DNA of 64,000 bases, from NCBI GenBank assembly GCA_964490075.1, contig CAZBBK010000014.1:1-64000 (forward strand), in the 5' to 3' direction. Both the position numbers and the translations under genes were made by a program. The notes beneath the pieces are model-generated. The model did no database searches and had not been told where the DNA came from. It saw only the letters and a list, made by a program, of their open reading frames with translations. This DNA comes from an uncultured Gemmatimonadota bacterium (GTDB lineage: Bacteria > GCA-2686955). The first letter of the stretch is position 1; the number at the start of each line of letters is the position of its first letter. This document shows positions 8,027-35,932 of this stretch, piece after piece.

Positions 8027-9733
8027 TCAGTCCGAGGCGGGCCCGGCCTCGGGGCGCCCAAAGAGCCGGCCCTCCATCATCAGGTAGTCCATGCCCGATT
8101 CGACGAAGGTGCGGGCCGCCTGCGCGGCGCTCGGGACCATCGGCTGCCCGGCCCGGTTGAACGAGGTATTGAGCAGCACCGGAACACCGGTGAGGTCGGC
8201 GAAGGCCTCGATGATCGCATGGTAGGCCGGGTTGTCCTCGCGACGAACCGTCTGCAGCCGCGCGGTGCCGTCGACATGGGTGACGGCCGGGATCTGCTCG
8301 CGGCGCTCCTCGCGCACCGGCACCACCTGCAGCATGTGCGGCGAGGGCACGTCGGTCGCGAACCAATCGCCGGCCCGCTCCGCGAGCGCCACCGGCGCGA
8401 AGGGGCGGTAGCTTTCGCGCTTCTTGATCTTGTGGTTCAGGCGGTCCTTCATGTCGGCGCGCCGCGGATCGGCCAGGATCGACCGGTTGCCGAGCGCCCG
8501 CGGGCCGATCTCCATGCGCCCGTGAAACCACCCCAGGACCGCGCCCTCGGCCAACAGCCGTGCCGCCTCCTGGATCGTGTCGACGCCCTTGTGCTCCGGC
8601 AGCTTCCACTCCCGGGCGGCGGCATCGACCGATCCCCCCGCGACATTCGGTCCCAGGTAGACCGTGTCGAGCGCGCAGCGTTCGCCGGTCAGCTGGCCGC
8701 GCACGTGCAAGGCCGCGCCCAGCGAGCAGCCGGCGTCGTTGGCAGCCGGCTGGATGAACAGGTTTTCGAAGGGCGATTCGCGCTGGATTCTGCCGTTCAT
8801 CACACTGTTGAGCACCACCCCGCCCGCCAGGCAGAGGCTGGGGGTGCCGGTCTCTCGGTGCAGGTAGTCGGCCAGCTCCAGGCCGATCTCCTCGGTGCGC
8901 ATCTGCACGCTGGCGGCCAGGTCGGCGTGGTGGTCCTCGATCTCTCCCTCCCGTTGCCGTGCGGGGCCGAAGCGTTCCTCGAAGCGCGGCGAGAACCAGA
9001 GCATGGTGTCGCGGTGGAAGAGGAAGTAAGAGAGATCGAGGCGGAACTGCCCGGAGCCGATCCACGGCACGATCTCCCGAAAGGCCTCGATATGTCGGGC
9101 CTTTCCATAGGGGGCGAGCCCCATCACCTTGCCTTCGTGGGCGTTGTTGAGGTAGCCCAGGTACTCGGTCGCGGTGGCGTAGAGCAGACCGAGGGAATGG
9201 GGGAAGGGAACCTCCGTCAGCCGCGTCATGCGCGTTCCCTCACCGATTCCCAGCCAGGTCGTCGAGCGCTCGCCGTTGCCGTCGATGCACAGGATCGCGG
9301 CGCGCTCGAAGGGGGAGAGCAGAAAGGCCGATGCAGCGTGAGCGAGGTAGTGGTCGACCCAGTGAAATCGAAAGCGCAGGCGGCCAGAGGCGGCGAAGCG
9401 GCGCCGGATCTCCCGCTCCACGCGCAGGATCTTCCACCATTCCGAGCCGTAGTCGCCGGCCACGCCCTGCAACGATCCCGGCAGTCCCTTGACCAGCTCC
9501 ACGGCGCGCTTGCCGAGTCCCAGCCAGGGGTTGTAGTAGAACGCCACGTGGTCGATCTCTTCGATCCCGGTTCCGCCGATCTCCAGGCAGGCAGCGATCG
9601 CCCGCATCGGAAACGACCCGTCGTAGCGGATTCCGCTCAGCCGCTCCTCTTCGACGCTCGCGACCACCCCCGATTCGTCGACCAGGCTGGCGGAGGCGAA
9701 GTTGTGGTAGCAGTTGAGGCCCAGAATCCTCAT
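8027..9733 (-). CDS. O-carbamoyltransferase, CmcH/NodU/TobZ (SxtI-like) family, paralog 1
   Basis: EEERL, HYLAHAASAF, IDGNGE, HSLGLLY, EGKVMGLAPYG, LAGGVVLN, QPAANDAG, GPRALGNRSILADP, KKRESYRPFAP, HVDGTARLQ, LNTSFN. Confidence 0.95.
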   Translation of the reverse strand: MRILGLNCYHNFASASLVDESGVVASVEEERLSGIRYDGSFPMRAIAACLEIGGTGIEEIDHVAFYYNPWLGLGKRAVELVKGLPGSLQGVAGDYGSEWWKILRVEREIRRRFAASGRLRFRFHWVDHYLAHAASAFLLSPFERAAILCIDGNGERSTTWLGIGEGTRMTRLTEVPFPHSLGLLYATATEYLGYLNNAHEGKVMGLAPYGKARHIEAFREIVPWIGSGQFRLDLSYFLFHRDTMLWFSPRFEERFGPARQREGEIEDHHADLAASVQMRTEEIGLELADYLHRETGTPSLCLAGGVVLNSVMNGRIQRESPFENLFIQPAANDAGCSLGAALHVRGQLTGERCALDTVYLGPNVAGGSVDAAAREWKLPEHKGVDTIQEAARLLAEGAVLGWFHGRMEIGPRALGNRSILADPRRADMKDRLNHKIKKRESYRPFAPVALAERAGDWFATDVPSPHMLQVVPVREERREQIPAVTHVDGTARLQTVRREDNPAYHAIIEAFADLTGVPVLLNTSFNRAGQPMVPSAAQAARTFVESGMDYLMMEGRLFGRPEAGPASD

Positions 9734-17726: not shown

Positions 17727-17845
17727 TCGCTGTCCTGAGCCTCCCCGTTTTCCACATCGCCCAGCGAGCGGAAAGCCTCGACGATCACCAGCACGAAGAG
17801 GATCCCGAGCAGTCCGACGAGCGTGTAGTAGAAGTAGATCGACAT
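17723..17845 (-). CDS. 40-aa single-pass membrane micropeptide (absent from the ORF track)
   Basis: Manual translation MSIYFYYTLVGLLGILFVLVIVEAFRSLGDVENGEAQDSE. One TM helix. Its TGA overlaps the TPR gene GTG. Confidence 0.6.
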   Translation of the reverse strand: MSIYFYYTLVGLLGILFVLVIVEAFRSLGDVENGEAQDSE

Positions 17846-18018
17846 GGTCGGCCCCGAGCGAGATGCGGATTGCACCGCAGAGCCTAGCACGCGCCGCGCT
17901 CGGCCCGCGCGCCCCTGACCCTTGCGCTCCGTCGCCGCCCGCAGAGTGTGCTAAGTTCCCGCGACTTCGTGAAAAGCGCAGTCGTGGAGCATCGGTTAAG
18001 ACATCGAAAGGACCCGAA

Positions 18019-18615: not shown

Positions 18616-18789
18616 TCAGAACAGCGCATAGAAGAAGGGCAGCAGGGTCGAGGTTTCGACTACCAGGATGAACAGGCCGAAGAAGAGCAGCACGAAGAGG
18701 ATCGGCGCCATCCACCAGCGGCGGGTGGCGCGCAGATAGAGTCCCGCCTCGCGGAAGATGCTGAAGTAGCTCTTGATCGAAGGGCTCAT
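18616..18789 (-). CDS. SxtK/DUF5989-like 57-aa membrane micropeptide (absent from the ORF track)
   Basis: Manual translation MSPSIKSYFSIFREAGLYLRATRRWWMAPILFVLLFFGLFILVVETSTLLPFFYALF. The RRWWxxP-TM-PFxYxLF pattern is typical of the family. ATGA overlap with the upstream gene. Confidence 0.85.
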   Translation of the reverse strand: MSPSIKSYFSIFREAGLYLRATRRWWMAPILFVLLFFGLFILVVETSTLLPFFYALF

Positions 18790-19559
18790 CGGGTCGCCTC
18801 TGGTTGCTCGGGAGTCGAGTCACGCGCGGCGGAGCGGCAGCAGCGAAAGCCGTCGTCTCCGCCGGTGTACTCCATGTTGTGAGAGTGATTGCGGAAGCTG
18901 CAGGTCAGCATCCGCCCGGCCATTCCGAGGTCTCCGCCGCGCAGAATCGGATAGCCGCGGTGTGATCCGGTGGGCCAGGGCAGGCCGTGATTGTCGTTCG
19001 ATCGACGCAGGTCGGAAACCCACTCGTTGACGTTTCCGAGCATATCGACCACCCCGTAGCCGCTGGCGCAACGCGGGTGCTCGCCGGCCGCGGCGAGCTC
19101 TTCGCTGCCGACGATGTCGGTGTGGCACCAGTCGGGCTCGAAGCGGTCCCCGTAACCGTAGCGCAGGCCCCGCGGACCCTTGCAGGCCTTCTCCCACTCT
19201 GCTTCGGTGCACAGCCGCTTGCCGAGCGCTTTGCAGCGCGCTTGCGCCTCGTACCAGCTCAGGTCGGTCATCGGTGGCTCACCCTCGATGTTGGGCCAGG
19301 GGTAGCGGTCGATCCAAAAGGCCTCGAGGCGCACTTCGTGCGGCAGGAAGTGGGTGTGGGGAGGGGCCCCGCCCGGCGCGTCGCCGATCACCATGTCGCT
19401 CTCGAAACGGTCGCCCATGATGAAGGTCCCCGCGGGGACCGGGACCATGCCCTCGGTTCCTGGGGTGCGGCTTGGGGCGTCGGCCTGAGCGCCGGCGCCG
19501 GTGGCGGCGAGCGCAACGAGGCAGACCAGGGCGGCGCAGCGCCGATCATGGTGAAGCAT
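18786..19559 (-). CDS. Exported FGE-sulfatase (SUMF1/EgtB/PvdO-fold) domain protein
   Basis: Signal peptide. GMVPVPAGTFIMG, FWIDRYP, KRLCTEAEWEKACKG, DMLGNVNEW, RGG, DDGFRCC. Confidence 0.88.
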   Translation of the reverse strand: MLHHDRRCAALVCLVALAATGAGAQADAPSRTPGTEGMVPVPAGTFIMGDRFESDMVIGDAPGGAPPHTHFLPHEVRLEAFWIDRYPWPNIEGEPPMTDLSWYEAQARCKALGKRLCTEAEWEKACKGPRGLRYGYGDRFEPDWCHTDIVGSEELAAAGEHPRCASGYGVVDMLGNVNEWVSDLRRSNDNHGLPWPTGSHRGYPILRGGDLGMAGRMLTCSFRNHSHNMEYTGGDDGFRCCRSAARDSTPEQPEATR

Positions 19560-19593: not shown

Positions 19594-22113
19594 TCAGCCA
19601 CCGGATAGGATGCCCTGCTCGAGGAGGGCGGCTTCGATCTCGGCCGCGATGATCTCGAATCCGGCCGGGTTCGGGTGCACCGCGTCGAAGAAGAGCGCCT
19701 CGTCCGGCGCCCGATCGAGGGCAGCCGCGGTGAAGGCCTGCGCAACGTCGACGCAGTGCACGCCGCCCCCGCCGGACGCGCGGAGAATCTCGTTGGCCTG
19801 GCTGTGGGCACGCTGCGGAGCGACGTCCAGATCGATGGCCGCCAGCCACTCCTCGCGGGCCTCCTCGGTGCGCCAAAGCTCGCTGTAGACCACACCCAGC
19901 TGATGGCGAAGATCGGATCGACTGTCGTCGATGCGTGCCGCCTCGCGCAGCTCTTCGAGAGCGGCCTGCCACTGCGACTCATCCGCCAGCCGTCGCCCTT
20001 CGTCGAAATGTTGCTGCCAACGCCCCGCCTCCTTCGCCGACAGGTGCTCGAAGTGAAAGGACTGAAAGGGCGGGTGCTTCAGATTCGAGGGGACGGTCAG
20101 CAGCAAGAGCGGCGTGCCGTGGTCGCGACACATCTGTGCCAGACGGCCGATGTTGGTTTCGAAATCGAGCAGCGTCAAGAAGCGACGGTTGATATGTTGC
20201 TGCGCCGCCTCACGATGATCGCGTGGCTGCTCACTGGGCTGCACCTCCTGGCCGGGATTCCAACCGGCTCCGTGCAGCGTGTCGAGCGCCCAGCGTCGCA
20301 TCAGCACGTAGAGTCGAATGCGATTCAACGTGATCTGCAGACGCAGAGCCCAGGGAGAGCGGCTGACGAACGCACGGTTGAGATCGTAGTTCACGAAATC
20401 GTTGTGCGCCGAAAACACGATCAGCGCGTCGGGCTGGTATTCCAGTACCTCTTTGGCGATGAGCACCAACTGGTTGGAGTCGTAGCCGACGCCGCCACAG
20501 TTGATCACGCGTGTCTTGGCGCCGGGATGGTGCTGGTCGAGCCGCTCCTGGAGAACGCGCGGAAAAGCGTCGCGACCGCCGGTGGGCCAGCCGTAGACGA
20601 TCGACCCGCCCAGACAGAAGAGCCGCGTGGCGCCCGGCTCTTTGTCGACCGGGAACTCCTGGTGGTTGAACTCGCCGTAGGAGTACCAGCCGGTCTTGGA
20701 GCGGTTGGTGACATGATAGGCGCGTCCTCTGTCCAGGGTCTTGACGCCGAAGAGCCGATACTCGTCGAGATCGAGATGGTGGCGGAAGGGATCCTCGCGC
20801 GCGCCGGCTTCGCCGTAGCCGAAGAGACGCAAGCCGAGCTCGGTCAGAGCCAGCAATCCGCAGCCGAGCGCGAGCGGCGCCAAGGTGTGGAGCAGGGCCC
20901 TGCGCGAGGGAAGCAAGGGGCGGCCGGAGCGCACCCTTCGGTAGCCGGCATGGGCGCCGATCAGCAGCGCGCCGAGGGCGAGCAGCCACGCCGCCCAGGG
21001 GCTGGAGGGCGGCTGGTCCGCGGCGCTGGTGCTGACGCCGCGCAAGCGATCGAGCACCTCATCGAGCTGCTCGAGCTCTTGCGGCTCGGCGGCGTCGCGA
21101 TGCCCTTCGAGGACCTCGATCGCCTCTGTCCTGCCCAGCTCGCCGAGTCCGCGGATAGCGGCGATGCGCACCGAGGAATCGCCGTCGCCGAGCATCGTCA
21201 CGAGATGGGGGTAGGAGATCGCGTAGGGGGGATCGGGTTGGCCGATGGTCTCGGCGGCCCAGCGCCTCAGGGCCGGGGACGAATCCTCCAGCCAGGGCAG
21301 GCAGAGGGCGATCTGGATGCGCGGCGCCAGATCGGAGAGCACTCGCATGGCTTCGCTGGCCGGGTCCTCCTGGTCGATCGACTGCAGCTCCTGGGCGTGC
21401 AGGCGGTTGGCCAGCAGGCGGGCGTTCACTCCCAGCGGCAGACGCAGCCGTGAGAGCAGACCGCGGTCCGAGTCGTCGAGCCCCAGGCCCGGAGAGTCGA
21501 GCTCGAAGGCGGCGCGCAGATGGACCAGCACGCGCTTGATATCCTCCACCAGGTAGCGGGGCGCCAGCCGACGCCGCACCAGCTCCGGCAGCGTGGGCCT
21601 CTGGATCAGGATCTGCTCGACGGTGGACTGGGTCTCCATGTCGAGATGGGTCTGTTCACCGGCGGCTGCCTCTCCTCGGAAGATCCACAGCCCGAGCAAG
21701 GGAAAGACGGCGGCATCCGTCGGGGAGGCCTCGATCGCGGCCAGGGCGACACGGCGGGTCAGAGGATCGGGGACTTCGAGCAGCGCCGCCGCCGCCTCGC
21801 TGCCGCGCGGGATCCTCGCCAGCAACGCGGCACAGCCGAGGCGGAACTGGTACGGCTCTTCCGGCGCGCGCAGCAATTCCACCAGCTCGGTGATGGCTCC
21901 GCGCTCGATCAGGCGGTTGCCCAGCTGCGATTCCCCGAGGGCGGTGCCGCTCTGGTGAAGCGCGCGCAACGAGTCCGCGATCGCCTCAGGGCTCTCCGGG
22001 GCGGCATCGGCCGGCGGCGCCGCGCCGGTGAGAAGGGCCAGGAGCAGCGCGGGCAGCAGGGTCCGGCGGCGAGGTCGGGCAGGGCGCCGGGTGCGCGGCA
22101 GCGGCCTGGTCAC
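19594..22113 (-). CDS. Membrane protein: HEAT repeats, 2 TM, SGNH/GDSL-fold domain with TPR insert
   Basis: Signal peptide. HEAT repeats (DSSPALRRWAAETIG, DGDSSVRIAAIRGLG). Two TMs. SGNH blocks CLGGSIVYG, INCGGVGYDS, AHND, FDAVHP. Confidence 0.8.
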   Translation of the reverse strand: MTRPLPRTRRPARPRRRTLLPALLLALLTGAAPPADAAPESPEAIADSLRALHQSGTALGESQLGNRLIERGAITELVELLRAPEEPYQFRLGCAALLARIPRGSEAAAALLEVPDPLTRRVALAAIEASPTDAAVFPLLGLWIFRGEAAAGEQTHLDMETQSTVEQILIQRPTLPELVRRRLAPRYLVEDIKRVLVHLRAAFELDSPGLGLDDSDRGLLSRLRLPLGVNARLLANRLHAQELQSIDQEDPASEAMRVLSDLAPRIQIALCLPWLEDSSPALRRWAAETIGQPDPPYAISYPHLVTMLGDGDSSVRIAAIRGLGELGRTEAIEVLEGHRDAAEPQELEQLDEVLDRLRGVSTSAADQPPSSPWAAWLLALGALLIGAHAGYRRVRSGRPLLPSRRALLHTLAPLALGCGLLALTELGLRLFGYGEAGAREDPFRHHLDLDEYRLFGVKTLDRGRAYHVTNRSKTGWYSYGEFNHQEFPVDKEPGATRLFCLGGSIVYGWPTGGRDAFPRVLQERLDQHHPGAKTRVINCGGVGYDSNQLVLIAKEVLEYQPDALIVFSAHNDFVNYDLNRAFVSRSPWALRLQITLNRIRLYVLMRRWALDTLHGAGWNPGQEVQPSEQPRDHREAAQQHINRRFLTLLDFETNIGRLAQMCRDHGTPLLLLTVPSNLKHPPFQSFHFEHLSAKEAGRWQQHFDEGRRLADESQWQAALEELREAARIDDSRSDLRHQLGVVYSELWRTEEAREEWLAAIDLDVAPQRAHSQANEILRASGGGGVHCVDVAQAFTAAALDRAPDEALFFDAVHPNPAGFEIIAAEIEAALLEQGILSGG

Positions 22114-23447
22114 CGACCTGCCCGGGGAGCCAGCGCCAACGCCAGCGCGGCGCTGCGACGCACCCCTTCCTCGGGATCCTGCTCGGCGATCGTTGCCAGA
22201 GCCTGGCGCGCTTCGCGGCAGGCGCGCTCATAGCCGACCGTCACCGGCAAGACCCGGCCGAGCGCCCAGGCGCTGCGCGCTCGCACGTGCTCGTGGGCCA
22301 GGTTCTCGGGGGAAAGAAGTGCCGCGCTCAGGTGGGGCAGCGCCTCGGGCGAGGGCGTCGCTCCCAGGGCGCGGGCGGCAGCCTCGCGCACCTGCCAGCA
22401 GCGGTCCTCCAGCGCCCGGATCAGTCCGGGCACCGCGCCGCGGGCGCGCAGTGCGCCCAGCGCGTCGGCGGCGGCGGCGCGCACCGAGGGATCGGCATCC
22501 TCCAGGGCGCGGCGCAGCTCGGCGGATGCCGTGCCGAAGCGCAACAGAGCCAGCCCTCGACAGGCGGCGATTCGCACCTCGCGCTCGCCCGAGCGCAGCA
22601 GGGCGACGAGGTGGGTCGACGCGCCGGTGCCACCAACTCGGGCCAGCCCGTGCGCGGCCGCCGCGCGCACCAGGGGATTGGTGTCGCGGGCACCGAGCTC
22701 GGCGAGGCGCTCGAGATCGCCGGGGCCGGCATGGGAGCCCAGGGCGAGGGCCGCGGCGCGGCGTACCTGTGGGTGCCCATCGTCCAGCGCCGCGCGCAGG
22801 GCGGCGGCGATCTCCTCGGAGGCGGGAAGCCGGGCCACGGCGCGGGCCGCGGCGGCCCGCGCGGGACCGCTCGGATCGTCGCGGAGCATGCTGAGCAAAG
22901 GCCCGGCCACCGCGCCGCGGGGGTAGCCGCAGTCTCCAACCAGTCTCAGCGCGGCGCCGCGCACCATCGGATCCGGGTCGCCGAGCCGGGCTTCGATCGA
23001 CGCGCCCAGCCCCGGCTCCTTCAGCGGGGCCGGAGCCTGCGCCGCCAGTCCGTCGAGCGCCGCCGCGCGGACCCGCGGGTCCGAATCCTCGAGCAGCTCC
23101 GCCAGCCGCTTGCCGGCCTCTTCTCCTCCGGTCCGGGCCAACCCCCGTGCCGCCAGGAGACGCCGCTTCGGATCGTCCGCGGCCAGAGCCTGCTCGATCG
23201 CGGGGGAGGCGCCGGGGCTGCCCAGGTGGACCGCCGCGAAGAGTGCCTCGAAGGAGGCCGAGCCCCCCAACGCCTCGAGCACCGCGTCGCCCGCGGCCTG
23301 GTCCTTCAGGATCCCGGCGAAGCGTGGAAACCAGGGCCCTTCGCCGGCACGCAGCGCGCCCAGGAAGCGGCTCTCTTCCGTCTCGTCGCCCCCGGCGCTC
23401 GCCAGCAACGAAACGCTCAGCACGGCGGCCCAGCGACCCGCTCTCAT
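22110..23447 (-). CDS. Exported HEAT-repeat (PBS-lyase-like) protein
   Basis: About nine repeats of DxDPxVRxAAxxALG. Hydrophobic leader. Overlaps both neighbours by 4 nt. Confidence 0.85.
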   Translation of the reverse strand: MRAGRWAAVLSVSLLASAGGDETEESRFLGALRAGEGPWFPRFAGILKDQAAGDAVLEALGGSASFEALFAAVHLGSPGASPAIEQALAADDPKRRLLAARGLARTGGEEAGKRLAELLEDSDPRVRAAALDGLAAQAPAPLKEPGLGASIEARLGDPDPMVRGAALRLVGDCGYPRGAVAGPLLSMLRDDPSGPARAAAARAVARLPASEEIAAALRAALDDGHPQVRRAAALALGSHAGPGDLERLAELGARDTNPLVRAAAAHGLARVGGTGASTHLVALLRSGEREVRIAACRGLALLRFGTASAELRRALEDADPSVRAAAADALGALRARGAVPGLIRALEDRCWQVREAAARALGATPSPEALPHLSAALLSPENLAHEHVRARSAWALGRVLPVTVGYERACREARQALATIAEQDPEEGVRRSAALALALAPRAGR

Positions 23448-24787
23448 TCGCTTCCTCCTGGGAGAACCTCTCGTTCCAGCGTCTCCAACGCCGCTTCCGC
23501 CATCAGCCGGTAGCCGCGCCGCGAGGGATGGACGGAGTCGACGAAGAGATCACGCATCAGGTAGTCCCCGCGCGCGATGGCGTCCTGCTCGAAGGCGCGG
23601 ATCGGGTCGATCAGCGGTACGTCCATCGACAGCGACACCCAGGAGAGGATGGTGTTGAGCTCCTCGAGCATTCCCAGACCGGGATGCCCCAGGCGCTTCG
23701 CCTGGTCCCAGGCGCAGGCCGCGCCCTCGATCTCTCCGAGCTGGCCGCGGGCGACCGCCAGGGCATGATAGAGATCGATCAGCTGCTGATTGCCCCTTGC
23801 GGCCGGGCCTCGCGGCCCGATCTCGAGCTCCAGCAGCCGCTGGGCACCGATCTTGGCCCGCGCCGCCTCCCCGGCCCAGATGCGCGGCAGCACCTCGCAT
23901 CCGCGCAGCTCGAAGCCGTCCTCCTGGCGCGGCAGCCGGAAGATGGCGATCTCGGCGCCGGCGTCGCGCACGATGCGCACCATCTCGGCCAGCGAATGCT
24001 CGTAGTGAACGAGCGTCCCGATCTGCTCGGCCGCCCCTTCGGTCGGCTCCCACTTGACGTTCTCTTCGGGCAGCATCGGCTTGCCGAACATGTCGAGGGT
24101 GCGGGGATCGGTGCGGTCCTCGCCTCCCTCCGAGGGACCGGCGAAGCGCAGCTGTACCTCGAACACCGCCCGCTTGAGCGCCAGGAAGGCGCGGCTGCGA
24201 TAGAGCAGGCGTTGCAGCTCGATGAGGCGCGGATCGCGCTCGATCAGGCGCCGGTAGAAGAGCGGCTCGTCGGTCTCGTTCTGCCCGCACGAGATCAGGA
24301 TCAGGTCGGGCTCGAGCCGCACCACCTCCTTGACCAGCTGCAGAATGCGGTAGGAGGCGTAGCCGTTGGCGCCGCAGTTGATCACCTCGAAGCGCCGCGA
24401 TCCGCGCAGCGCCTGTGCCTGTTCGGCCAGGACCTTCTCGAGCCGTTTGGGGTAGGAGAAGACGATCGAGTCCTGCCCACCGATGCCGTAGCCCCAGGTC
24501 ACAGAGCCGCCGAAGCAGAACACCCGGTAGGTGTCTGGGGCCTTGCTCGCCGGGAAACGCTCGTTCCGGAAGATCCCCTGGTCGAGCTTGCGCGGATTGG
24601 TGCGCAGGAAGGTGGGATCGTCGGGATCGGGGACGAAGAGGGGATGGAGGCCGTAGAAGCCGACGAAGGGGTCCTCCATCTCCAGCGGGCGGCCCAGGGC
24701 GGCGTCGCCGGCGCGCGCCAGCGCTTCCAGTGCGGCCAGAGTCAGGGCGACCGAGAGCAGGGCGAAGAGGTACTTGCGCAGTCCCAT
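23444..24787 (-). CDS. Membrane-anchored SGNH/GDSL-fold protein
   Basis: N-terminal TM ending in LEALAR. Blocks CFGGSVTWG, INCGANGYAS, GQNE, VDSVHP. Confidence 0.82.
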   Translation of the reverse strand: MGLRKYLFALLSVALTLAALEALARAGDAALGRPLEMEDPFVGFYGLHPLFVPDPDDPTFLRTNPRKLDQGIFRNERFPASKAPDTYRVFCFGGSVTWGYGIGGQDSIVFSYPKRLEKVLAEQAQALRGSRRFEVINCGANGYASYRILQLVKEVVRLEPDLILISCGQNETDEPLFYRRLIERDPRLIELQRLLYRSRAFLALKRAVFEVQLRFAGPSEGGEDRTDPRTLDMFGKPMLPEENVKWEPTEGAAEQIGTLVHYEHSLAEMVRIVRDAGAEIAIFRLPRQEDGFELRGCEVLPRIWAGEAARAKIGAQRLLELEIGPRGPAARGNQQLIDLYHALAVARGQLGEIEGAACAWDQAKRLGHPGLGMLEELNTILSWVSLSMDVPLIDPIRAFEQDAIARGDYLMRDLFVDSVHPSRRGYRLMAEAALETLEREVLPGGSE

Positions 24788-24911
24788 GGTGCTGCGAATC
24801 CTACTACCTCTCGGTCGTTGGCAGTGCGCGGCGTGCGGCGCATCCGCTATCCTGTGCCGCCTCCGCACCAGAACCTCCATCGCCCCCCGACCCTGACAGG
24901 AGTCGAAACGC

Positions 24912-26630
24912 TTGAAGATTCTCGGGATCTCCTACATGTACCACGACTCCGCGGCGGTATTGTTGGTGGACGGTCGACTGGTCGCCGCCGCCGCGGAGGA
25001 GCGCTTCAACCGACTGAAGCACTCGATCGAGTTTCCGGAGCAGGCGGCGCGCTACTGCCTGCGCCAGGGCGGCCTCGACGTCTCCGAGCTCGACTGCATC
25101 GGGTTCTACGAAAAACCCCTGCTCAAGTTCGAGCGCTTTCTGACCGCCCACATGGCCTATTTTCCGCGCTCCTACACCGCCTTTCGCCGCTTCATCCCGC
25201 TCTTTCTGACCCGCAAGCTGCACATTCCGGGCACCATTCGCGAGAGCCTGGACTACCGCGGCGACATCTTCTTCGCCGAGCACCACCCGGTGCACGCCGC
25301 CAGTGCTTTCTACCCCTCGCCCTTCGACCGGGCCGCGATCCTGACGGTCGACGGCACCGGCGAGTGGGCCACCACCTGCGTGGGACTGGGGGAAGGCGAC
25401 ACGATACGCCTGTTGCGCGAGCTGCGTTGGCCGCATTCGATCGGACTGCTCTACAGCGCCCTGACCGCCTATCTCGGCTTTCGGGTCAACGGCGGCGAAG
25501 GCAAGGTGATGGGACTGGCGCCCTACGGCGACCCCGAACGCTTCATCGAGCCGCTGCGCCGGCTCTCCCCTTCGGCCGGCGACGGCAGCTTTCGACTCGA
25601 CCTCTCCTACTTCGACTTCCACTACAAGACACGCATGGTCAGCCCCAAGTTCGAGCAGCTCTTCGGCACGCCGCGCGAGCCCGAAGGGCCGATCGAGGAG
25701 CACCATCGCGACGTGGCGGCGGCGCTGCAGCTCAGATCGGAGGAGCTGCTCCTGGAGATCTCCCGCCACGCATACGAGAGCACCGGGGCGACCGACCTGT
25801 GCATTGCCGGTGGCGTCGGCCTGAACAGTGTCGCCAACGGACGCATCCTGCGCGAGACACCATTCGAGCGGATCTTCGTTCAGCCCGCTTCGGGAGACGA
25901 TGGCGGCGCACTCGGTGCCGCGCTCTACTTGCAGCATCATCTTTTCGGGGATGGGGTGCGGGTGCCCATGGAACACGCCTGCTGGGGCCCGGAGTTCGGC
26001 GATGCCGAGATCGCCGCCTTTCTCGCCCGGCAGGGCATCGCGGCCCAGGCTCTGGAAGAGGCGGATCTGCTCGAGCGCTGCGCGGGAGCGTTGGCCCAGG
26101 GACACATCGTCGGCTGGTTCCAGGGGCGCATGGAGTACGGGCCGCGCGCTCTGGGAAACCGCAGCATCCTGGCCGATCCGCGCGGGGCCGACATGAAGGA
26201 CGTGCTCAACGCGCGGGTAAAGCACCGCGAGTCGTTTCGTCCTTTCGCGCCCGCGGTGCCGCTCGAGCGGGTCGCGGAGTTCTTCGATCTGGAGGGCCCC
26301 AGCCCCTACATGCTGCTGGTGGCGGCGGTTCGCGACCAATGGGTCGAGCGCTTGCCGGCGATTACCCACGTCGACGGTACGGCTCGCGTCCAGACGGTGA
26401 CGCCCGAATCGAATCGGCTCTTCTATCGACTGCTGGAGGCCTTCGAGCGGCACTCCGGCGTGCCGGTGCTGCTGAATACGTCGTTCAACGTGCGTGGCGA
26501 GCCGATCGTCTGCTCCCCAGAAGACGCCTGGATCTGCTTCCAGAAGACCGATATGGATGCGCTGGTGCTGGGCCGCTGGTGGATCGATGCTCAGCGCGAG
26601 GCGCAGCAGCGAAATCCGTCGTCGGGGTAG
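24912..26630 (+). CDS. O-carbamoyltransferase, CmcH/NodU (SxtI-like) family, paralog 2
   Basis: ILGISYMYHDSAA, EERFNRLKH, FYEKPLLKFER, EHHPVHAASAF, DGTGEW, EGKVMGLAPYG, GPRALGNRSILADP, LNTSFNVRGEPIV. TTG start after AGGAG. Confidence 0.96.
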   Translation: MKILGISYMYHDSAAVLLVDGRLVAAAAEERFNRLKHSIEFPEQAARYCLRQGGLDVSELDCIGFYEKPLLKFERFLTAHMAYFPRSYTAFRRFIPLFLTRKLHIPGTIRESLDYRGDIFFAEHHPVHAASAFYPSPFDRAAILTVDGTGEWATTCVGLGEGDTIRLLRELRWPHSIGLLYSALTAYLGFRVNGGEGKVMGLAPYGDPERFIEPLRRLSPSAGDGSFRLDLSYFDFHYKTRMVSPKFEQLFGTPREPEGPIEEHHRDVAAALQLRSEELLLEISRHAYESTGATDLCIAGGVGLNSVANGRILRETPFERIFVQPASGDDGGALGAALYLQHHLFGDGVRVPMEHACWGPEFGDAEIAAFLARQGIAAQALEEADLLERCAGALAQGHIVGWFQGRMEYGPRALGNRSILADPRGADMKDVLNARVKHRESFRPFAPAVPLERVAEFFDLEGPSPYMLLVAAVRDQWVERLPAITHVDGTARVQTVTPESNRLFYRLLEAFERHSGVPVLLNTSFNVRGEPIVCSPEDAWICFQKTDMDALVLGRWWIDAQREAQQRNPSSG

Positions 26631-29957: not shown

Positions 29958-31720
29958 GGCAGCTGGAACTCGAAGCAGCAGTCGTAGATGCACTCGATGG
30001 CGTCGGAGGGCTCACTCTTCGCCTGGGTGACGGCGACCACCACCATGCGCTCATGGAGATCGAAGAATATGTTGCGATGGACCAGCTCGGCCAGGGGCTC
30101 CAGGGAGATCGTCTGGCCGCGGTGCATCAGCGTGGCGGGTCCCAACTCGCCCTGGCGCAGGATCAGCGAGGTCAACAGGCTGTTGATGTTGGCGCCGTTG
30201 ATCAGCTTCTCTTCGAAGGGCGCCCGGTCGAGATACTTCATCACCACCGAATCGAGCTCCTCGATGTCGTCGATGCGTTGCAGGATCAGGTGCGTGGCCG
30301 CGGTGTCGAGCAGACGGTCGAGGAGCCGGTCGCGGCTGTAGGGTTGGGTGTAGTCGACATCGAAGAAGGTCGCGCCGCAGGTGGCGACGGAGCAGAAATC
30401 GACCATGACCACCGGGCAGAGGACCCGCATCGGCGCTGCGCCGGTCTCGTTCTCGGTCAGCCAGGCATCGCACGCGATGTAGCCGGCCATCGAAATCTGA
30501 TCGTACTTGTCGCGCAGAAACGACTCGTCGCCGACGTAACGCCGATAGTCTCCGAAGGCACCCCAGCGGCCGACCATGAGCAATCCCACGGCGATGCCCG
30601 GCCCGATCCAGGCCAGCACTCGCAGGCGCAACACCTTGAGCAGCACCTGCTCGGCCGTGAACACCATGAAGAGCAACAGCAGCCCGAGGCCGAAAAGGGT
30701 GTAGCGCAGGTCGGCCTCGTAGAAGGTGAAGGCCGCCGTATGCGCCACGAAGTAGAGATAGACCGGAGAGAAGCGCACGAAGCAGGCGGCCCCGAGTGCC
30801 AGCGCGATCGCCGCCCCTTGCCAGAAGGGTGTATCGGCGATCCGATTCAGGTCGAAGCTGCGGTAGAGCCAGCTGGTCTGGATGCTGTAGGGGGCGTCGA
30901 GATTGAGGATCGCCAGCATGGCGTTGCGCACCGTGTCGCGAAACACCGCGAGCAGGGGGCCGGAGTCTCCGGCGGCGAGCGCCGCCCACATGCTCTGCTG
31001 GTTGATCTGGCGATAGGCGAGATACTCGCCGGCGGAGCGGAACACTGGGATGCTGAGCAGCAAGAAGAGGACGAATCCGGTGCCGCAGACCAGCCAGTAG
31101 CGCCGCCAGAGACGCATCGCATCCGAGCCCCACCCGTCGCGGCGCCAGGTGCGAAATCCCAGCCAGAGCGTCGCGCAGGGAATGATGATCCCACTGATTC
31201 GGGTCAGGATGACCAGCGACGAGAGCACGCCGGCCACGACCATCAGGCGCCGCTCGCCGCGCCGCCAGCCGAGCGCCATTGCGTAGAGCGCCGCGAGGGT
31301 CAGGAAGATGTAGAGGATGTTGTACTGAATTGTGGAGGCGAAGCAGATGTCGAGCAGGCTGAGACACATCAACAGAGCCGCGCTGAGCGCCGCGAAGGTC
31401 GAGGTCACTTCGCGCCCGAGCAGGTAGAGCAAGACCACCGCTCCGACGCTCGACACCAGGGTGACGCTCTTGGCGAGCAATAGATTTTCCGGACCGAAGA
31501 GCAGCTCCAGGAGCGCCAGAAGCGCTACGTAGAACACTCCCTCGTCGTAGGTGAAAATGGTCATGATGTCGCCGGTCGCGATCCGCGCACCGATGAACCA
31601 GTACCAGTTCGACCCCTCGCTGAGCTCGGCGTTGAAGACCACCAGGCGGATCGCCAGCGCCGCCAGGCCGATCAGCAGCGGCACCGCGATGCGGCCCGCT
31701 CGGGACAAGAGGGGCGACAT
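29954..31720 (-). CDS. ArnT/PMT-like GT-C-fold glycosyltransferase
   Basis: ALAIRL leader, YDEGVFY, LYLLGR, ILTRISG, DLRYTL, multiple TMs. TGATG overlap with carbamoyltransferase 3. Confidence 0.72.
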   Translation of the reverse strand: MSPLLSRAGRIAVPLLIGLAALAIRLVVFNAELSEGSNWYWFIGARIATGDIMTIFTYDEGVFYVALLALLELLFGPENLLLAKSVTLVSSVGAVVLLYLLGREVTSTFAALSAALLMCLSLLDICFASTIQYNILYIFLTLAALYAMALGWRRGERRLMVVAGVLSSLVILTRISGIIIPCATLWLGFRTWRRDGWGSDAMRLWRRYWLVCGTGFVLFLLLSIPVFRSAGEYLAYRQINQQSMWAALAAGDSGPLLAVFRDTVRNAMLAILNLDAPYSIQTSWLYRSFDLNRIADTPFWQGAAIALALGAACFVRFSPVYLYFVAHTAAFTFYEADLRYTLFGLGLLLLFMVFTAEQVLLKVLRLRVLAWIGPGIAVGLLMVGRWGAFGDYRRYVGDESFLRDKYDQISMAGYIACDAWLTENETGAAPMRVLCPVVMVDFCSVATCGATFFDVDYTQPYSRDRLLDRLLDTAATHLILQRIDDIEELDSVVMKYLDRAPFEEKLINGANINSLLTSLILRQGELGPATLMHRGQTISLEPLAELVHRNIFFDLHERMVVVAVTQAKSEPSDAIECIYDCCFEFQLP

Positions 31721-33480
31721 CAAGGCTTCGCCAAGCGCGTGCCTTCCAGGTAGAGCACGTCGATTCCGGTTCCGGCGAAGCAGAGCAGGGCGTCGTCCGG
31801 CGAGCAGACGATCGGCTCTCCACGCACGTTGAAGCTGGTATTGAGCACCACGGGCGTTCCGCTGAGCTCGGCGAAGGCCGAGATCAGGCGATGGAAGAGC
31901 GGCGAGTCGTCGCGGTTCACGGTCTGCAGCCGCGCCGAGCCGTCGACATGGGTGACGGCCGGGATCTCGGTGCGTTTCTCCGCCCGAACCGGACAGATTT
32001 TGAGCATGAAGGGGGTCGGTCCCTCGATCTCGAAGTACTCGGCGGCGCGCTCTTCCAGCGCCGCCGGGGCAAAGGGCCGGAAGCCCTCGCGATGTTTGAC
32101 CCGAGCGTTGAGGTGGTCCTTCATCGTCGCCTGCCGCGGGTCGGCCAGGATCGAACGATGGCCGAGGGCCCGCGGACCAACCTCCATGCGGCCCTGGAAC
32201 CAGCCGACGATGCGTCCGGCGGCGATGTCGCGGGCCGCATGTTCGGCCGGCGTGTCGAGCGCTTCGATAGTCACGGAATCGAGCCTGGAGCGCTGCCGAT
32301 CGATCGCGGCGGCGACATCGGCCGCGGTCCAGGCCGGTCCCCAGGCGGCATGACCCAGGTGGCGCTGGGCGCCGGGACGCTGGAGTCGGAAATGGTGCAG
32401 CAGCAGCGCGCCACCGAGCGCGGTTCCGGCGTCGTTGGCGGCCGGCTGCACGTAGATCTCGTCGAAGGGCCCCTCGCGCACCAGGCGTCCGTTGGCGGCG
32501 CCGTTCAGGGCCACTCCGCCGGCCAGGCAGAGGCGTTTCAGTCCGGTGCGCCGCGCGAGCTCCGCGGCGAGGTGCAGGAAGATCGTCTCGGTATGGGCCT
32601 GCAGCGAGGCCGCCACGTCGTGGTGGTGATCGTCGAAGGGCCCCTCGGGTACCCGGCGCGGTCCGAAGCGCTCGATGAAGCGCTGCGTCACGTAGTCCTG
32701 CTTGCCCAGGTGGACGTCGAAATAGCGCATGTCGAGACGCAGCCGGAAGCCGGGACCGAGGCGCAGGATCTCGGCGAAGTCGTCGGCGTACTTCGGGCTG
32801 CCGTAGGGCGCCAGCCCCATCACTTTGCCCTCGCCGGAGTTCTCTTTGAAGCCGAGATACTCGGTCACGCAGAGGTAGAGCAACCCGAGGCTGTGGGGAT
32901 AGGCGATTCGCTCCAGCACCTCGTAGCGGTGGCCGCGGGCTCGCGCGGCGAGGGTGGTGTGGGCCTCGCCGTTGGCGTCGATGATCAGCACCGCCGCCTC
33001 GTCGAAGCCCGAAGGGCAGAATGCCGATGCGATGTGGGCGGCGTGGTGATCGGCGTAGTGGAACTTGCCCCGGAATCCGAGTGTTCGAAACTCGCGCTTG
33101 ACTCCGAGCATGCGTCGCAAGATGTCGGTTCGGCCCTCGCTGACTACCGGGCGCCCGGCGCTCGACGACGATTGCCCGGCTCCCGGCGTCAGCCTTGGCC
33201 ACCAGGCCGCCGCCTTGGCGAGGGCGGCGATCCAGGCCCGTTTGCTCAGCCCGCGCCAGGGTCGCCAGAAGTAGACCGCGTGGTCGACCTCGGCGAGTGT
33301 GATGCCGGCATCGGCCAGGAGTGCCTCGAGCGCCAGGCGAGGAAACGCGGACGTGTGTTTCTGGCGGGTGAAGCGTTCCTCTTCCACGAAGCCGGCGATC
33401 TCGCCGTCGCGCAAGAGGCAGACCGCACTGTCGTGCATGTGGCAGTTGACGCCCAGGATGTAGAGCGGGCGGTGTCTCAT
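31720..33480 (-). CDS. O-carbamoyltransferase, CmcH/NodU (SxtI-like) family, paralog 3
   Basis: ILGVNCHMHDSA, EEERFTRQKH, DHHAAHIASAF, HSLGLLY, EGKVMGLAPYG, QPAANDAG, GPRALGHRSILADP, LNTSFNVRGEPIV. Confidence 0.96.
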   Translation of the reverse strand: MRHRPLYILGVNCHMHDSAVCLLRDGEIAGFVEEERFTRQKHTSAFPRLALEALLADAGITLAEVDHAVYFWRPWRGLSKRAWIAALAKAAAWWPRLTPGAGQSSSSAGRPVVSEGRTDILRRMLGVKREFRTLGFRGKFHYADHHAAHIASAFCPSGFDEAAVLIIDANGEAHTTLAARARGHRYEVLERIAYPHSLGLLYLCVTEYLGFKENSGEGKVMGLAPYGSPKYADDFAEILRLGPGFRLRLDMRYFDVHLGKQDYVTQRFIERFGPRRVPEGPFDDHHHDVAASLQAHTETIFLHLAAELARRTGLKRLCLAGGVALNGAANGRLVREGPFDEIYVQPAANDAGTALGGALLLHHFRLQRPGAQRHLGHAAWGPAWTAADVAAAIDRQRSRLDSVTIEALDTPAEHAARDIAAGRIVGWFQGRMEVGPRALGHRSILADPRQATMKDHLNARVKHREGFRPFAPAALEERAAEYFEIEGPTPFMLKICPVRAEKRTEIPAVTHVDGSARLQTVNRDDSPLFHRLISAFAELSGTPVVLNTSFNVRGEPIVCSPDDALLCFAGTGIDVLYLEGTRLAKP

Positions 33481-35537
33481 TGCAGCTCGATCCATGTGTA
33501 GCTACGGCCGTTTCCGTTGGGGTCGCTGCCGTCGCTGGTAGAGAAGAACACCTTGCCCTGCCAGTGGCTGTAGCGCCCCCCCCCGGAGCGCCGGATCGCC
33601 TGGTGGCCCTGGTGGGCGGGCCCCAGCGGCACGTCGTCCTCCAGCAGCGCCAGCCGCGACCGGCCCACCCGATTTGGCTCGTCGCTCGGGACGTTGGCGG
33701 GGACGTCCATCACGTAGGAAGCACCGCCGTCGTGCGGAAAGTAGCCGTCGACGTCGCTGCCGCGGCGCAAGGGCTGGGAGCCGATTCTATAGACACGGAT
33801 CTCTGGATGGTGCACCGAGTAGTCGTAGGGCAGTGCCGGGAAGCGGGCGATCAGCGCGGTTCCCGGATGGGATTGGAGCTCGACATAAAAATTCCGATAG
33901 GGCCGAGTCTCGGGATTGCCGTACATCCACTGAGAGAGCACCACGTAGTCGGGCGCCAGGCGCAGCAAGGCGGGGAAGTCTCCTGTGTCGCGATTCGCGT
34001 GCAGCGCGTAAGTCTGGAGAACCATGTCGCGGGCGACCCGTGCCGCCATCTGTTCGGCAGCGTCGAGGCTCGTCGCGTCGAGCTCCAGGGCCATGATATG
34101 GCGCGGCTCGCACATGCCCTCCAGGTCGGACAAGATCTCGGTCGCGGCGCTGTCTGATTCACCCACCAACAAGAAGGGAACCCGCTTCACGAAAGGCCCG
34201 TACATCGGTTGCCCCTCGAGAAAGCTGAAGTTGGTGATTTGGTAGCGTTGGCCAGAAACCGACGGTCCGTACTCCCCGTTCGACTCCACGGCGATGGACG
34301 ATTCGACCGGAATATTGTCGCTGATCCAGCGCGATGCCACCAGCCGCGAATCGGGAGTGTGGAAGATCGTCTGCACCGTCGCCAGCGCCGGCAGAACCTC
34401 GGCCAGCGCGGCGGCCAGGAGCAGCGCCGTCAATCCCGCCCGTGTCCGCACCGGGAGGCGCCGAAAGGGAACCACCACCGCGCCCGCGGCCAGCACCAGC
34501 AGGATCGGCACGATCGGCAGGATGTAGCGCGGAACGCGCAATCCGAAGGACGACATCAGGCAGTAGAAGCCACCCAGCCACAGGGCGACGACCAGCGCGG
34601 CGCCGGGCCTGGATCTCACCATGAACCCAAAGCCCAGGGCGGCGAGGGCCATCAAACCGAATCCCATGTGGCGCCCCAGGAGGAAGAAGTACTCGCCGAG
34701 GGGCCGTGCGTCGCCGGTTCCGGTGTCGAGCGACACCACGCGCCCGAGGTTGCGTTGTAGCTCGGCCCAGGAGTCCTGGAAGTGGACCAGGAAGGCGAGG
34801 TTGATCAGCAGCACGGTGAAGGCGGCGAGGGCGGCGCCCGCCAGCACCGGCGCTCTCCAGGGCGGCGACCCACGCCGGGACCAGGCCCAGCCCAGCGCGC
34901 CGGCGTAGGGCAGGAGCAGCGCCACCGCGTTGTACTTCTGCGACATCGCCAGCCCCATCAAGAGCCCGGCCCGGAGATGATCGCGGGCGCCGCCGCGCTC
35001 GGCGACAGCCACCAGAGCGATCACCGCGGCGCTGCAGAGCAGCACGAAGAGGGCGTCGAGGGTGCCGTAGTGGGAGTGCTGCACGTGCAGCGGGTTGAGT
35101 GTGAGCAGGACACCGGCGATGAGTGCGGCACCCGCTCCTCCCGCCAGCTCGCGGCCGCGCCGCATGACCAGCCAGGCCGTGGCGCCGGCCGCCACGACCG
35201 ACACCATCCGCGCCAGCAGGTAGCGGGTGCCGGGGATCAGGTCGAGGAAGGAGTGGTAGTCGAGATCGCTCGCTATCCCGACCAGTCGGGCGCCCCAGAA
35301 GGTGATTCCGTTGAGGGCCGCCAGCAGATAGAGATGGAGCGCGGGGTAGCCCCAGTAGTGCGGATCGAGATCGGGCCAGATCTGTCCCGACTTGTTCCAG
35401 ACGCCGTACTCGTCGGCATGCCAGGCCCCCACCCACCCCTGATCGAGCGCGATGTTGAAGCCGATGCCGCTGGCGCGCAAGACCAGGGCGAGCGCCGCGA
35501 TTGCGATTGCGGCATATGTCGATCGGGCGATCCGCAG
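33477..35537 (-). CDS. ArnT-like GT-C glycosyltransferase with an extra C-terminal soluble module
   Basis: WHADE, DPHYWGYPALH, SHYGTLD, SQKYNA, VPRYILP, DSRLVASRWI. The start is uncertain; a CTG at 35537 follows GGAG by 7 nt. Confidence 0.8.
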   Translation of the reverse strand: MRIARSTYAAIAIAALALVLRASGIGFNIALDQGWVGAWHADEYGVWNKSGQIWPDLDPHYWGYPALHLYLLAALNGITFWGARLVGIASDLDYHSFLDLIPGTRYLLARMVSVVAAGATAWLVMRRGRELAGGAGAALIAGVLLTLNPLHVQHSHYGTLDALFVLLCSAAVIALVAVAERGGARDHLRAGLLMGLAMSQKYNAVALLLPYAGALGWAWSRRGSPPWRAPVLAGAALAAFTVLLINLAFLVHFQDSWAELQRNLGRVVSLDTGTGDARPLGEYFFLLGRHMGFGLMALAALGFGFMVRSRPGAALVVALWLGGFYCLMSSFGLRVPRYILPIVPILLVLAAGAVVVPFRRLPVRTRAGLTALLLAAALAEVLPALATVQTIFHTPDSRLVASRWISDNIPVESSIAVESNGEYGPSVSGQRYQITNFSFLEGQPMYGPFVKRVPFLLVGESDSAATEILSDLEGMCEPRHIMALELDATSLDAAEQMAARVARDMVLQTYALHANRDTGDFPALLRLAPDYVVLSQWMYGNPETRPYRNFYVELQSHPGTALIARFPALPYDYSVHHPEIRVYRIGSQPLRRGSDVDGYFPHDGGASYVMDVPANVPSDEPNRVGRSRLALLEDDVPLGPAHQGHQAIRRSGGGRYSHWQGKVFFSTSDGSDPNGNGRSYTWIELQ

Positions 35538-35689: not shown

Positions 35690-35932
35690 ATGGCTTCCGG
35701 GAGACTCCGCTCCGCATGGCTGCGCTTCAAGGCGCGGGCCGAGGCGCTGCGGCTGCGCATCGCCTCGGCGCAGACCACGGTGTTGATCGTCATCGGCTAC
35801 TTCCTGGTGCTGGGGCCGATCGCGCTGATCTGGCGCCGTTTCGTGCCCGATCCGCTGGGCGAGTCGGGCACGGGATGGACCGAGCGACCCGAGCTGCCGC
35901 GCGACCTCGAATCGCACCGGCGGCAGTACTGA
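35690..35932 (+). CDS. SxtJ-like small membrane protein (80 aa)
   Basis: MASGRLRSAWLRF...TTVLIVIGYFLVLGPIALIWRRFVPDPL...GWTER...RRQY matches the W..F..TM-P-I..R...DPL...W..R...RQ[FY] pattern. Extended -10 TGCTATGCT just upstream. Confidence 0.75.
   Translation: MASGRLRSAWLRFKARAEALRLRIASAQTTVLIVIGYFLVLGPIALIWRRFVPDPLGESGTGWTERPELPRDLESHRRQY

Follow-up and report, generated by a model that had tools for sequence, protein, structure and literature searches.

A DUF5989 microprotein with a conserved C-terminal tyrosine, encoded beside SGNH proteins in an uncultured Gemmatimonadota bacterium: a candidate carrier of carbamoyl groups

A 64-kb stretch of DNA from an uncultured Gemmatimonadota bacterium (positions 1 to 64,000 of contig CAZBBK010000014.1, assembly GCA_964490075.1; the whole stretch is called the window below) carries, at 18616-18789 on the minus strand, a gene for a 57-residue membrane protein of the DUF5989 (SxtK-type) family. 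The protein ends in the heptapeptide P-F-F-Y-A-L-F, and the tyrosine of this tail, Tyr54, is invariant among the relatives that end in the same type of motif. Sequence and gene context together suggest a DltX-like tyrosine carrier that would feed SGNH transferases, probably with carbamoyl groups, a reading whose chances we rate as slightly short of even. An earlier note on this DNA had proposed a relay of this kind; its observation is confirmed here, and its interpretation appears partly supported.

Results

The 57-residue reading frame is a real DUF5989 gene

The gene and the two parts of its product on which the argument turns are as follows.

18616..18789, minus strand: DUF5989 (SxtK-type) microprotein, 57 amino acids (aa) (Pfam PF19451, translation, G+C content at third codon positions)
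18658..18717, minus strand: single predicted transmembrane helix, about residues 25-44, beginning at invariant Trp26 and near-invariant Pro29 (sequence)
18619..18639, minus strand: C-terminal heptapeptide P-F-F-Y-A-L-F with the candidate acyl- or carbamoyl-accepting Tyr54, whose codon is 18628-18630 (family statistics, genome census)

The open reading frame (ORF) starts with ATG, runs for 57 codons and ends in PFFYALF-stop; the coordinates and translation agree with the earlier note, which had described an ORF with one transmembrane helix and this terminus. The G+C content at third codon positions (GC3) is 0.88, compared to 0.83-0.87 in the neighboring genes, the start codon and the stop codon of the preceding gene share an ATGA, and a GAGG lies 7 nt 5' of the ATG; because of these three features we regard 18616-18789 as a real gene. 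The product matches Pfam DUF5989 (PF19451) with an expectation value (E) of 8.7e-13 and 48.5 bits, well above the curated cut-off of 27, and residues 10-57 align with profile positions 2-49 of 49, which bears out the SxtK/DUF5989-like identity that had been suggested. Thus, it is confirmed that the ORF encodes a 57-aa DUF5989 membrane protein.

NCBIfam holds no model for the microprotein, PDB sequence and profile searches returned nothing relevant, and a search of protein clusters gave DUF5989 clusters only, with nothing usable once these were skipped. A promoter and terminator scan found nothing above shuffled controls. Contigs of four DNA runs, all from one marine study, are identical across the ORF, so that no population variation could be read from them. 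DUF5989 itself is a large family: 377 representative clusters were reached by phmmer against 1.84 billion proteins from the divergent window query alone, and the best 150 of these 377 representative relatives were examined.

The tail tyrosine is never replaced by phenylalanine

Among the best 150 relatives, 138 end in hydrophobic-x-Y-x-x-hydrophobic. All 138 have Tyr at position -4 and Pro at position -7, and none has Phe at -4, while the flanking aromatics vary, with Phe at -6 in 127 and Phe at -1 in 132 of these 138 sequences. That the tyrosine is never Phe while its aromatic neighbors vary argues that the hydroxyl itself matters. The remaining 12 relatives comprise three with Ala or Gly at a flank, five with residues after the motif and four without the motif, which look unrelated or frame-shifted; overall, a tail tyrosine is present in 146 of the 150. 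The earlier note had named invariance of this tyrosine across DUF5989 as a check on its proposal, and the family passes it among all motif-ending members. We also aligned 102 of the 150, namely those with the terminal motif and modest length. In this alignment W26, P51 and Y54 are invariant, all three being present in the window protein, and P29, F52 and F57 are near-invariant.

A census of the whole genome (136 contigs, 95% complete) gave a similar picture from another side. Only 6 of 71,799 stop-to-stop frames of at least 35 aa end in F.Y..F, and all six belong either to MBOATs (four) or to DUF5989 (two); as controls, four permuted patterns were counted and occurred in 2, 1, 0 and 0 frames. 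The F.Y..F end of DUF5989 is more than chance. The four MBOATs end in P/A-F-I/L-Y-x-x-F and are located on contigs C1, C4 and C5, and there is no MBOAT within the 64-kb window, as had been noted before.

Charge distribution places the tail outside the cytoplasm

The microprotein has five lysine or arginine residues before its hydrophobic stretch and none in its 13-residue tail. This bias is a property of the family: in the 138 motif-ending relatives the mean number of lysines plus arginines is 3.07 in the 15 residues before the helix and 0.04 in the 14-residue tail, and the tail is free of them altogether in 132. By the positive-inside rule, such a charge bias indicates an extracytoplasmic tail. 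The topology is therefore predicted to be N-in/C-out, with the C-terminus on the side where SGNH domains work, as the earlier note had supposed.

Likeness to DltX, to MBOAT tails and to the saxitoxin genes

The primary paper on DltX is reportedly that of Schultz et al. from 2023. According to the accessible portion of a 2025 article (PMC12148441), the SGNH protein DltD receives an acyl group from DltX on its serine, the same hexapeptide is also found at the C-terminus of other bacterial MBOATs themselves, and PatA of N. gonorrhoeae acetylates its tail tyrosine, an O-acetylated FIYANF peptide acting as donor for PatB. The authors describe the other MBOAT/SGNH pathways as being without a DltX-like microprotein, and the term 'carbamoyl' is absent from their text (PMC12148441). 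DltX of L. plantarum has 49 residues and a C-terminal peptide ending in FIYNEF, and modelling and binding assays place the last DltX residues in the catalytic pocket of DltD, with a second contact between the two transmembrane helices (PMC13653941, excerpted text).

The tail of the window protein agrees with the motifs published in these excerpts both in the hexapeptide and in its distance from the C-terminus, which upholds the comparison to DltX and PatA drawn in the earlier note. The likeness to DltX extends to a length of about 50 residues, one transmembrane helix, a C-terminus that is extracytoplasmic (by prediction for DUF5989), F-x-Y-x-x-F at the free C-terminus with Tyr at -4, and a membrane-anchored SGNH protein encoded in the microprotein's own operon. 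However, DUF5989 loci have a carbamoyltransferase and SxtJ where DltX loci have a DltB-type MBOAT, DltA and a carrier protein; DUF5989 has conserved features of its own, a basic-WW-x-x-P boundary and an invariant Pro at the third position before the Tyr; and it occurs in many Gram-negative and candidate phyla. MBOATs of the PatA and AlgI type share with DUF5989 the same C-terminal motif after the last transmembrane helix, whereas DUF5989 is a stand-alone microprotein without the MBOAT core or its catalytic His. Compared to the MBOAT-SGNH systems, the window has an SGNH partner with catalytic residues predicted to face outward but lacks an MBOAT that would load the tyrosine. In AT3-SGNH systems (OatA, OafA type) an acyl group likewise crosses the membrane to an SGNH domain, but there a ten-helix AT3 domain and acyl-CoA are used, and just 2 of the 77 DUF5989 loci described below have an AT3 gene.

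In the saxitoxin cluster, sxtI (1839 bp), sxtJ (405 bp), sxtK (165 bp) and sxtL (1281 bp) have consecutive accessions, and sxtI is annotated as a carbamoyltransferase and sxtL as GDSL-type (PMC2679770, accessible portion); SxtJ and SxtK are listed as of unknown function in the accessible portions of both reports (PMC2679770, PMC2885083). Sizes and annotations of these four genes fit the four-gene module of DUF5989 loci. SxtK itself is presumably a DUF5989 member. The window differs in being an envelope-glycan island rather than a toxin cluster, and its SxtJ-like ORF is truncated and distant. Among titles and abstracts, with subscription papers and supplements outside the search, no publication was found that names DUF5989 or links DUF5989, carbamoyltransferase and SGNH proteins.

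DUF5989 genes of other genomes lie beside carbamoyltransferase, SxtJ and SGNH genes

Loci from other genomes, one genome per species, were collected with a 14-sequence alignment and with patterns that matched the KKWW boundary and the tail. Of 600 pattern matches, 551 were confirmed as loci, and the best 80 of these were taken, a sample biased to canonical members, and 77 were analyzed, L016, L018 and L081 being dropped since no motif-ending ORF was found in them. The loci span at least 20 phylum-level labels. A gene set built from the longest ORFs had a carbamoyltransferase within five genes in 50 of the 77 loci; its 284 neighbors within three genes included Pfam SxtJ in 40 loci, SGNH-type proteins (GDSL_2, ALGX, SGNH) in 20, AT3 in 2 and MBOAT in none. 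This set missed small genes in high-G+C genomes, and we therefore recounted all frames of at least 50 aa up to 10 kb from DUF5989, on which the main counts rest.

In this recount an SxtJ-like protein is present in 61 of the 77 loci (within 300 bp of DUF5989 in 50), a carbamoyltransferase in 63 (within 1 kb in 57) and an SGNH/AlgX-like protein in 34 (within 1 kb in 21 and within 3 kb in 28); all three are present in 31. An MBOAT occurs in a single locus, 8.5 kb from DUF5989. The 25 SxtJ-like matches outside the training set of our profile have E values of 4e-7 to 2.5e-43. SGNH matches have a density of 11.7 per 100 kb within 1 kb of DUF5989, 1.0-2.2 at 3-10 kb and 0.46 across the window's genome, a local excess of about 25-fold that is partly circular because the SGNH profile was built from near neighbors. 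The gene order SxtJ-SGNH-DUF5989 recurs (L013, L045, L050 and L074), and four partner proteins match Pfam ALGX, two of them above the cut-off. ALGX is a family of known MBOAT-fed O-acetyltransferases. Thus, the relay partners named in the earlier note stood as far as the family is concerned, which is linked to carbamoyltransferase, SxtJ and SGNH proteins and almost never to an MBOAT.

Fusions repeat these linkages. About 20 of 87 longer relatives are SxtJ-DUF5989 fusions, including clusters of 18 and 13 members, in which the C-terminal tail of SxtJ is joined to the N-terminus of DUF5989, so that the SxtJ tail should be cytoplasmic. An AlphaFold2 (AF2) model of one natural fusion was poor, with a predicted local distance difference test score (pLDDT) of 66.5 and values below 50 in the tail. 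In several longer relatives DUF5989 is fused to pieces of carbamoyltransferase, some of these fusions being apparent artefacts of read-through or frame shift. A single metagenomic sequence, on a 3.2-kb contig, encodes an MBOAT of 501 aa that ends in all elements of DUF5989, namely the basic-WW boundary, the Pro, the helix and a tail ending in A-P-F-I-Y-T-L-F; it is a natural link between the two families or else a chimera made in assembly.

As a separate observation, in most of the 36 SxtJ proteins that we aligned (loci L013-L091) the cytoplasmic tail contains S-Y-W and the chain ends in Y-E-x-Q-F. The membrane would separate this second conserved aromatic C-terminus from the tail of DUF5989, and the SxtJ tyrosine is common, not invariant.

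The window holds the same components in a looser arrangement

The genes of the window that bear on the microprotein are these.

18786..19559, minus strand: FGE-sulfatase-domain protein whose N-terminus has a signal-like segment; its translation is coupled to that of the DUF5989 gene (Pfam PF03781, E 5e-28)
19594..22113, minus strand: HEAT repeats, two transmembrane helices and an SGNH domain with a TPR insertion (Pfam, alignment, AF2)
22110..23447, minus strand: HEAT-repeat protein (Pfam HEAT_2, E 7.3e-53)
23444..24880, minus strand: SGNH protein with an N-terminal transmembrane anchor; a later start at 24787 is possible (Pfam Lipase_GDSL_2, E 4.3e-14)
24912..26630, plus strand: NodU/CmcH-type carbamoyltransferase, divergently adjoining the operon (Pfam Carbam_trans_N, Carbam_trans_C)
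31720..33495, minus strand: second carbamoyltransferase, between PMT_2-type glycosyltransferase genes (Pfam)
8027..9733, minus strand: third carbamoyltransferase, downstream of a YfhO-like membrane protein (genome profile search)
35690..35932, plus strand: 80-aa truncated SxtJ-like ORF, last transmembrane helix and cytoplasmic tail (custom SxtJ hidden Markov model, hhalign)

The DUF5989 gene is the last in a co-directional row of five genes that begins with the SGNH protein 23444-24880, in which, counted from the head, the genes overlap by 4 bp at the first, second and fourth junctions and are 34 bp apart at the third; the microprotein thus stands at the end of an operon with two SGNH proteins, as first noticed in the earlier note. 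Beyond the head of this row, and transcribed away from it, lies the carbamoyltransferase gene 24912-26630. The usual neighborhood of the family is not found here, in that the microprotein follows the FGE-like gene and the nearest carbamoyltransferase is 6.1 kb off, at the other end of the operon.

The operon is part of a 30-kb island (8027-38098) with the three carbamoyltransferases, a GT2, a phosphodiesterase, a YfhO-like protein, three PMT_2-type membrane glycosyltransferases, one GT-C-like membrane protein and two FGE-sulfatase-like proteins. Judged by this gene content, the island looks like a system decorating an envelope polymer or glycan outside the cytoplasm. Two smaller observations belong to this region. 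At 19185-19224, in the FGE-like gene, unrelated metagenome contigs pile up on 40 bases in all four runs, which probably reflects a conserved FGE-domain motif shared with other organisms. At 17723-17890 (minus strand) lies a putative 55-aa ORF with one hydrophobic stretch and a GC3 of 0.80, amid long overlapping frames and without a Pfam match.

Ten carbamoyltransferases were found in the genome, three of them in the window, together with three DUF5989 matches above the cut-off. The copy at 24912-26630 is the best of the three window copies for all 51 DUF5989-linked carbamoyltransferases of other genomes, with a median score of 532 bits compared to 409 and 376 for the other two. The earlier note had cast 'carbamoyltransferase 2' as the partner, a choice that fails, since the neighbor of the operon is the divergent 24912-26630 copy, which is also the one most like the DUF5989-linked enzymes. 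Genome-wide, the closest carbamoyltransferase to the linked ones is on contig C2 and not in the window (50 of 50).

SxtJ is harder to find. The Pfam SxtJ model (PF19588) has no match in the genome at E up to 1, a correction to the relay partners of the earlier note. A custom profile of 36 DUF5989-adjacent SxtJ proteins matches the ORF 35690-35932 (E 7e-4), for which hhalign gives 96.2% and E 2.2e-9 over the C-terminal 56 columns only; the ORF has a GC3 of 0.89, and its stop is 4 nt before the gene of a 720-aa membrane protein. On contig C2, a 121-aa protein (C2:3511-3876) directly upstream of the carbamoyltransferase is not recognized by Pfam but aligns with the 36 SxtJ proteins at an hhalign probability of 96% (E 3.5e-9), and two weaker matches of the custom profile lie beside carbamoyltransferases on C1. 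Thus, the window appears to hold a carbamoyltransferase, an SxtJ-like protein, DUF5989 and SGNH proteins, but not as the compact module seen elsewhere. Three side observations concern these SxtJ-like genes: the product of 35690-35932 ends its tail in an aromatic residue; the 720-aa protein that follows has a GT-C-like F-I-W-D-D loop and no Pfam match; and no DUF5989 gene is found beside the C2 SxtJ-like gene (L096:3511-3876), the usual triad being split across contigs.

A second locus, on C1, has two carbamoyltransferases, two SGNH-TPR proteins and two weaker DUF5989-like microproteins ending in F-[IL]-Y-A-G-V. These microproteins (C1:192644-192778 and 195578-195706, or L006:9636-9779 and 12579-12716), in which Val replaces the final Phe, also adjoin PP-loop ATPase-like and sulfatase-type genes. 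Elsewhere in the genome, two MBOATs are directly followed by large AlgX-type SGNH proteins, the canonical MBOAT-SGNH pairing.

The SGNH partner keeps its catalytic residues

Both SGNH domains of the window come after transmembrane anchors with basic cytoplasmic flanks, so that they should face the same side as the tyrosine. We aligned the C-terminal 465 residues of the 19594-22113 product with 33 relatives. A search with an alignment of partner SGNH proteins returned no protein named SxtL. Ser130 of this alignment, in G-G-S, is invariant, Asn197, Asp188 and His439 are kept in at least 90%, and the catalytic Ser, Asn and His are present in the window protein. A glutamate inside the transmembrane anchor (Glu51 of the alignment, about residue 425 of the product, in E-x-G-L-R) is also kept in at least 90% of the SGNH-TPR relatives and occurs in the other SGNH protein of the window and in the two C1 SGNH-TPR proteins.

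An AF2 model of the SGNH fragment (pLDDT 89.1, predicted template-modelling score 0.87) resembles ordinary SGNH esterases, with a Foldseek E of about 1e-5 and a structural Z of about 19; modelled in this way, the SGNH fold cannot separate a transferase from a hydrolase. The first Foldseek match is CgnD of crocagin biosynthesis (8a2n, E 1.5e-5), which is no better than the generic esterases; the crocagin pathway presumably also contains a carbamoyltransferase. Complex prediction with the 465-aa SGNH fragment and DUF5989, run without controls, gave scores of 0.21 and 0.28 compared to a mark of 0.32 and speaks neither for nor against binding.

Discussion

A tyrosine carrier for SGNH transferases

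In the reading that we favor, the basic N-terminus of the microprotein would lie in the cytoplasm, one helix would cross the membrane, and the uncharged tail with the invariant tyrosine would be periplasmic. An acyl group would be held for a time on the tyrosine hydroxyl, most likely carbamoyl, which the neighboring carbamoyltransferase would make from carbamoyl phosphate and ATP. From the tyrosine the group would pass to the catalytic serine of an SGNH protein that is anchored in the membrane and encoded by the same operon, and this protein would put it on an envelope glycan or another acceptor. In most other genomes the carrier would work with the small membrane protein SxtJ, to which it is sometimes fused. 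The cargo is probably carbamoyl because of the gene linkage to carbamoyltransferase, and O-aryl carbamates are classical carbamoylating agents of serine hydrolases. We infer that the tyrosine forms a covalent intermediate, as we do the nature of its cargo, the direction in which transfer runs and the acceptor. Loading of the tyrosine could conceivably take place along an SxtJ-lined path, with the 14-residue uncharged tail swinging back into the membrane; by carbamoylation before tail-anchored insertion, which would make the carrier single-use; or through an additional partner protein.

Several results weigh against this reading. To our knowledge no enzyme is known, and none is evident, that would load a periplasmic tyrosine from a cytoplasmic carbamoyltransferase, and none of the three carbamoyltransferases of the window has a signal peptide. 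The 36 aligned SxtJ proteins show no invariant column and no conserved polar catalytic candidate, and in the window the microprotein is not beside SxtJ, the SxtJ-like ORF being 17 kb off. The SGNH domain has a generic esterase fold. Among the 77 loci, 43 have no SGNH-like gene within 10 kb and 14 have no carbamoyltransferase, and since the loci were picked through the motif they cannot speak to its conservation. No orthologue of the window copy was found among the matches in four other genomes of the phylum (83-95% complete), which with five genomes in all is too small for a phyletic test.

Direct comparison with the known tyrosine-bearing families weighs in the same direction. The Pfam DltX model (PF12459) does not match the query at E up to 10, and DltX is not among the 25 commonest of the 43 families matched by the 102 aligned relatives; the HMMER filters drop most weak matches, so that both nulls leave room for a distant relation. 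Aligned by hhalign with the four MBOATs of the genome, DUF5989 matches over its last nine columns only, at E 0.17 and a probability of 0.4%. By sequence, then, the microprotein is a member of DUF5989 and not a detectable member of the DltX family, and its DltX-like way of working is something that we infer. In addition, SxtL is annotated in the accessible portions of the saxitoxin reports as acting in decarbamoylation, that is, hydrolysis (PMC2679770, PMC2885083).

A wider claim, which we hold to be possible if doubtful, is that carbamoyltransferase, SxtJ, DUF5989 and SGNH proteins form a widespread MBOAT-independent machine that would move carbamoyl across the membrane as a tyrosine O-carbamate, the SGNH enzyme installing it on extracytoplasmic acceptors. 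SxtJ and DUF5989 would then be the minimal relay, SxtI/J/K/L would be one instance of it, and SxtL would be a carbamoyl transferase and not a decarbamoylase.

Alternative explanations

The rival that survives best, and which we nevertheless consider unlikely, is a non-covalent adaptor: DUF5989 and SxtJ would tether a soluble carbamoyltransferase to the membrane or regulate it there, carbamoylation of a lipid-linked or membrane-proximal substrate would take place at the cytoplasmic face, and the tail would serve in packing or partner recognition. The tightest linkages are indeed to SxtJ (50 of 77 loci within 300 bp) and carbamoyltransferase (57 of 77 within 1 kb) and not to SGNH proteins, the cytoplasmic N-terminal segment including the basic-WW boundary is conserved as well, and enzymes using lipid-linked sugars (GT2 and GT-C) abound in the window island; furthermore, such an adaptor requires no new membrane-crossing chemistry. 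However, it leaves unexplained why the tyrosine is never Phe in 138 sequences despite varying aromatic neighbors, why the motif is at a free C-terminus on the far side of the membrane, and why SGNH matches are in about 25-fold local excess.

We regard as improbable, beyond the adaptor, that the motif is convergent, in which case the SGNH proteins would act as esterases or decarbamoylases and trim the product, the role proposed for SxtL, and the likeness of the tails would be coincidental or due to a preference at the membrane interface. The fold search, which yields only generic SGNH esterases, agrees with this, as do profile comparisons without a significant link to MBOAT tails or DltX and the published annotation of SxtL as decarbamoylation (PMC2679770 and PMC2885083, in their accessible portions). 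In this genome, however, the C-terminal pattern is exclusive to MBOATs and DUF5989, one MBOAT bears a complete DUF5989-type tail, and some partner SGNH proteins are AlgX-type, a transferase family; moreover, the decarbamoylation role of SxtL was never tested, according to the accessible portions of the same papers.

Least probable of all, in our judgment very improbable, is that the same carrier mechanism serves another cargo, with a non-carbamoyl acyl group loaded onto the window tyrosine by another membrane enzyme and the carbamoyltransferases modifying other island substrates: the loci without a carbamoyltransferase, SGNH-DUF5989 pairs that lack one (e.g. L019, L028 and L041), the C18 paralogue of this genome with none within 9 kb and the C2 location of the closest relative of the linked enzymes would fit it, but carbamoyltransferase is within 1 kb in 57 of 77 loci and no alternative acyl-activating enzyme or transmembrane acyltransferase recurs (MBOAT in 1 of 77 loci, AT3 in 2).

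Significance

Acyl-tyrosine shuttling has been established only recently, for DltX/DltB/DltD and PatA/PatB. The tail and the gene context of DUF5989 suggest a so far undescribed way of carbamoylating molecules beyond the cytoplasm. If the carrier reading is true, DUF5989 would be a second tyrosine carrier, one independent of MBOATs, and there would be a third means of moving an activated group through a bacterial membrane, as well as the first route for extracytoplasmic carbamoylation. It would also give testable roles to SxtJ and SxtK, whose function has been given as unknown ever since the saxitoxin cluster was described, and to the thousands of 'GDSL lipase' genes that lie beside carbamoyltransferases.

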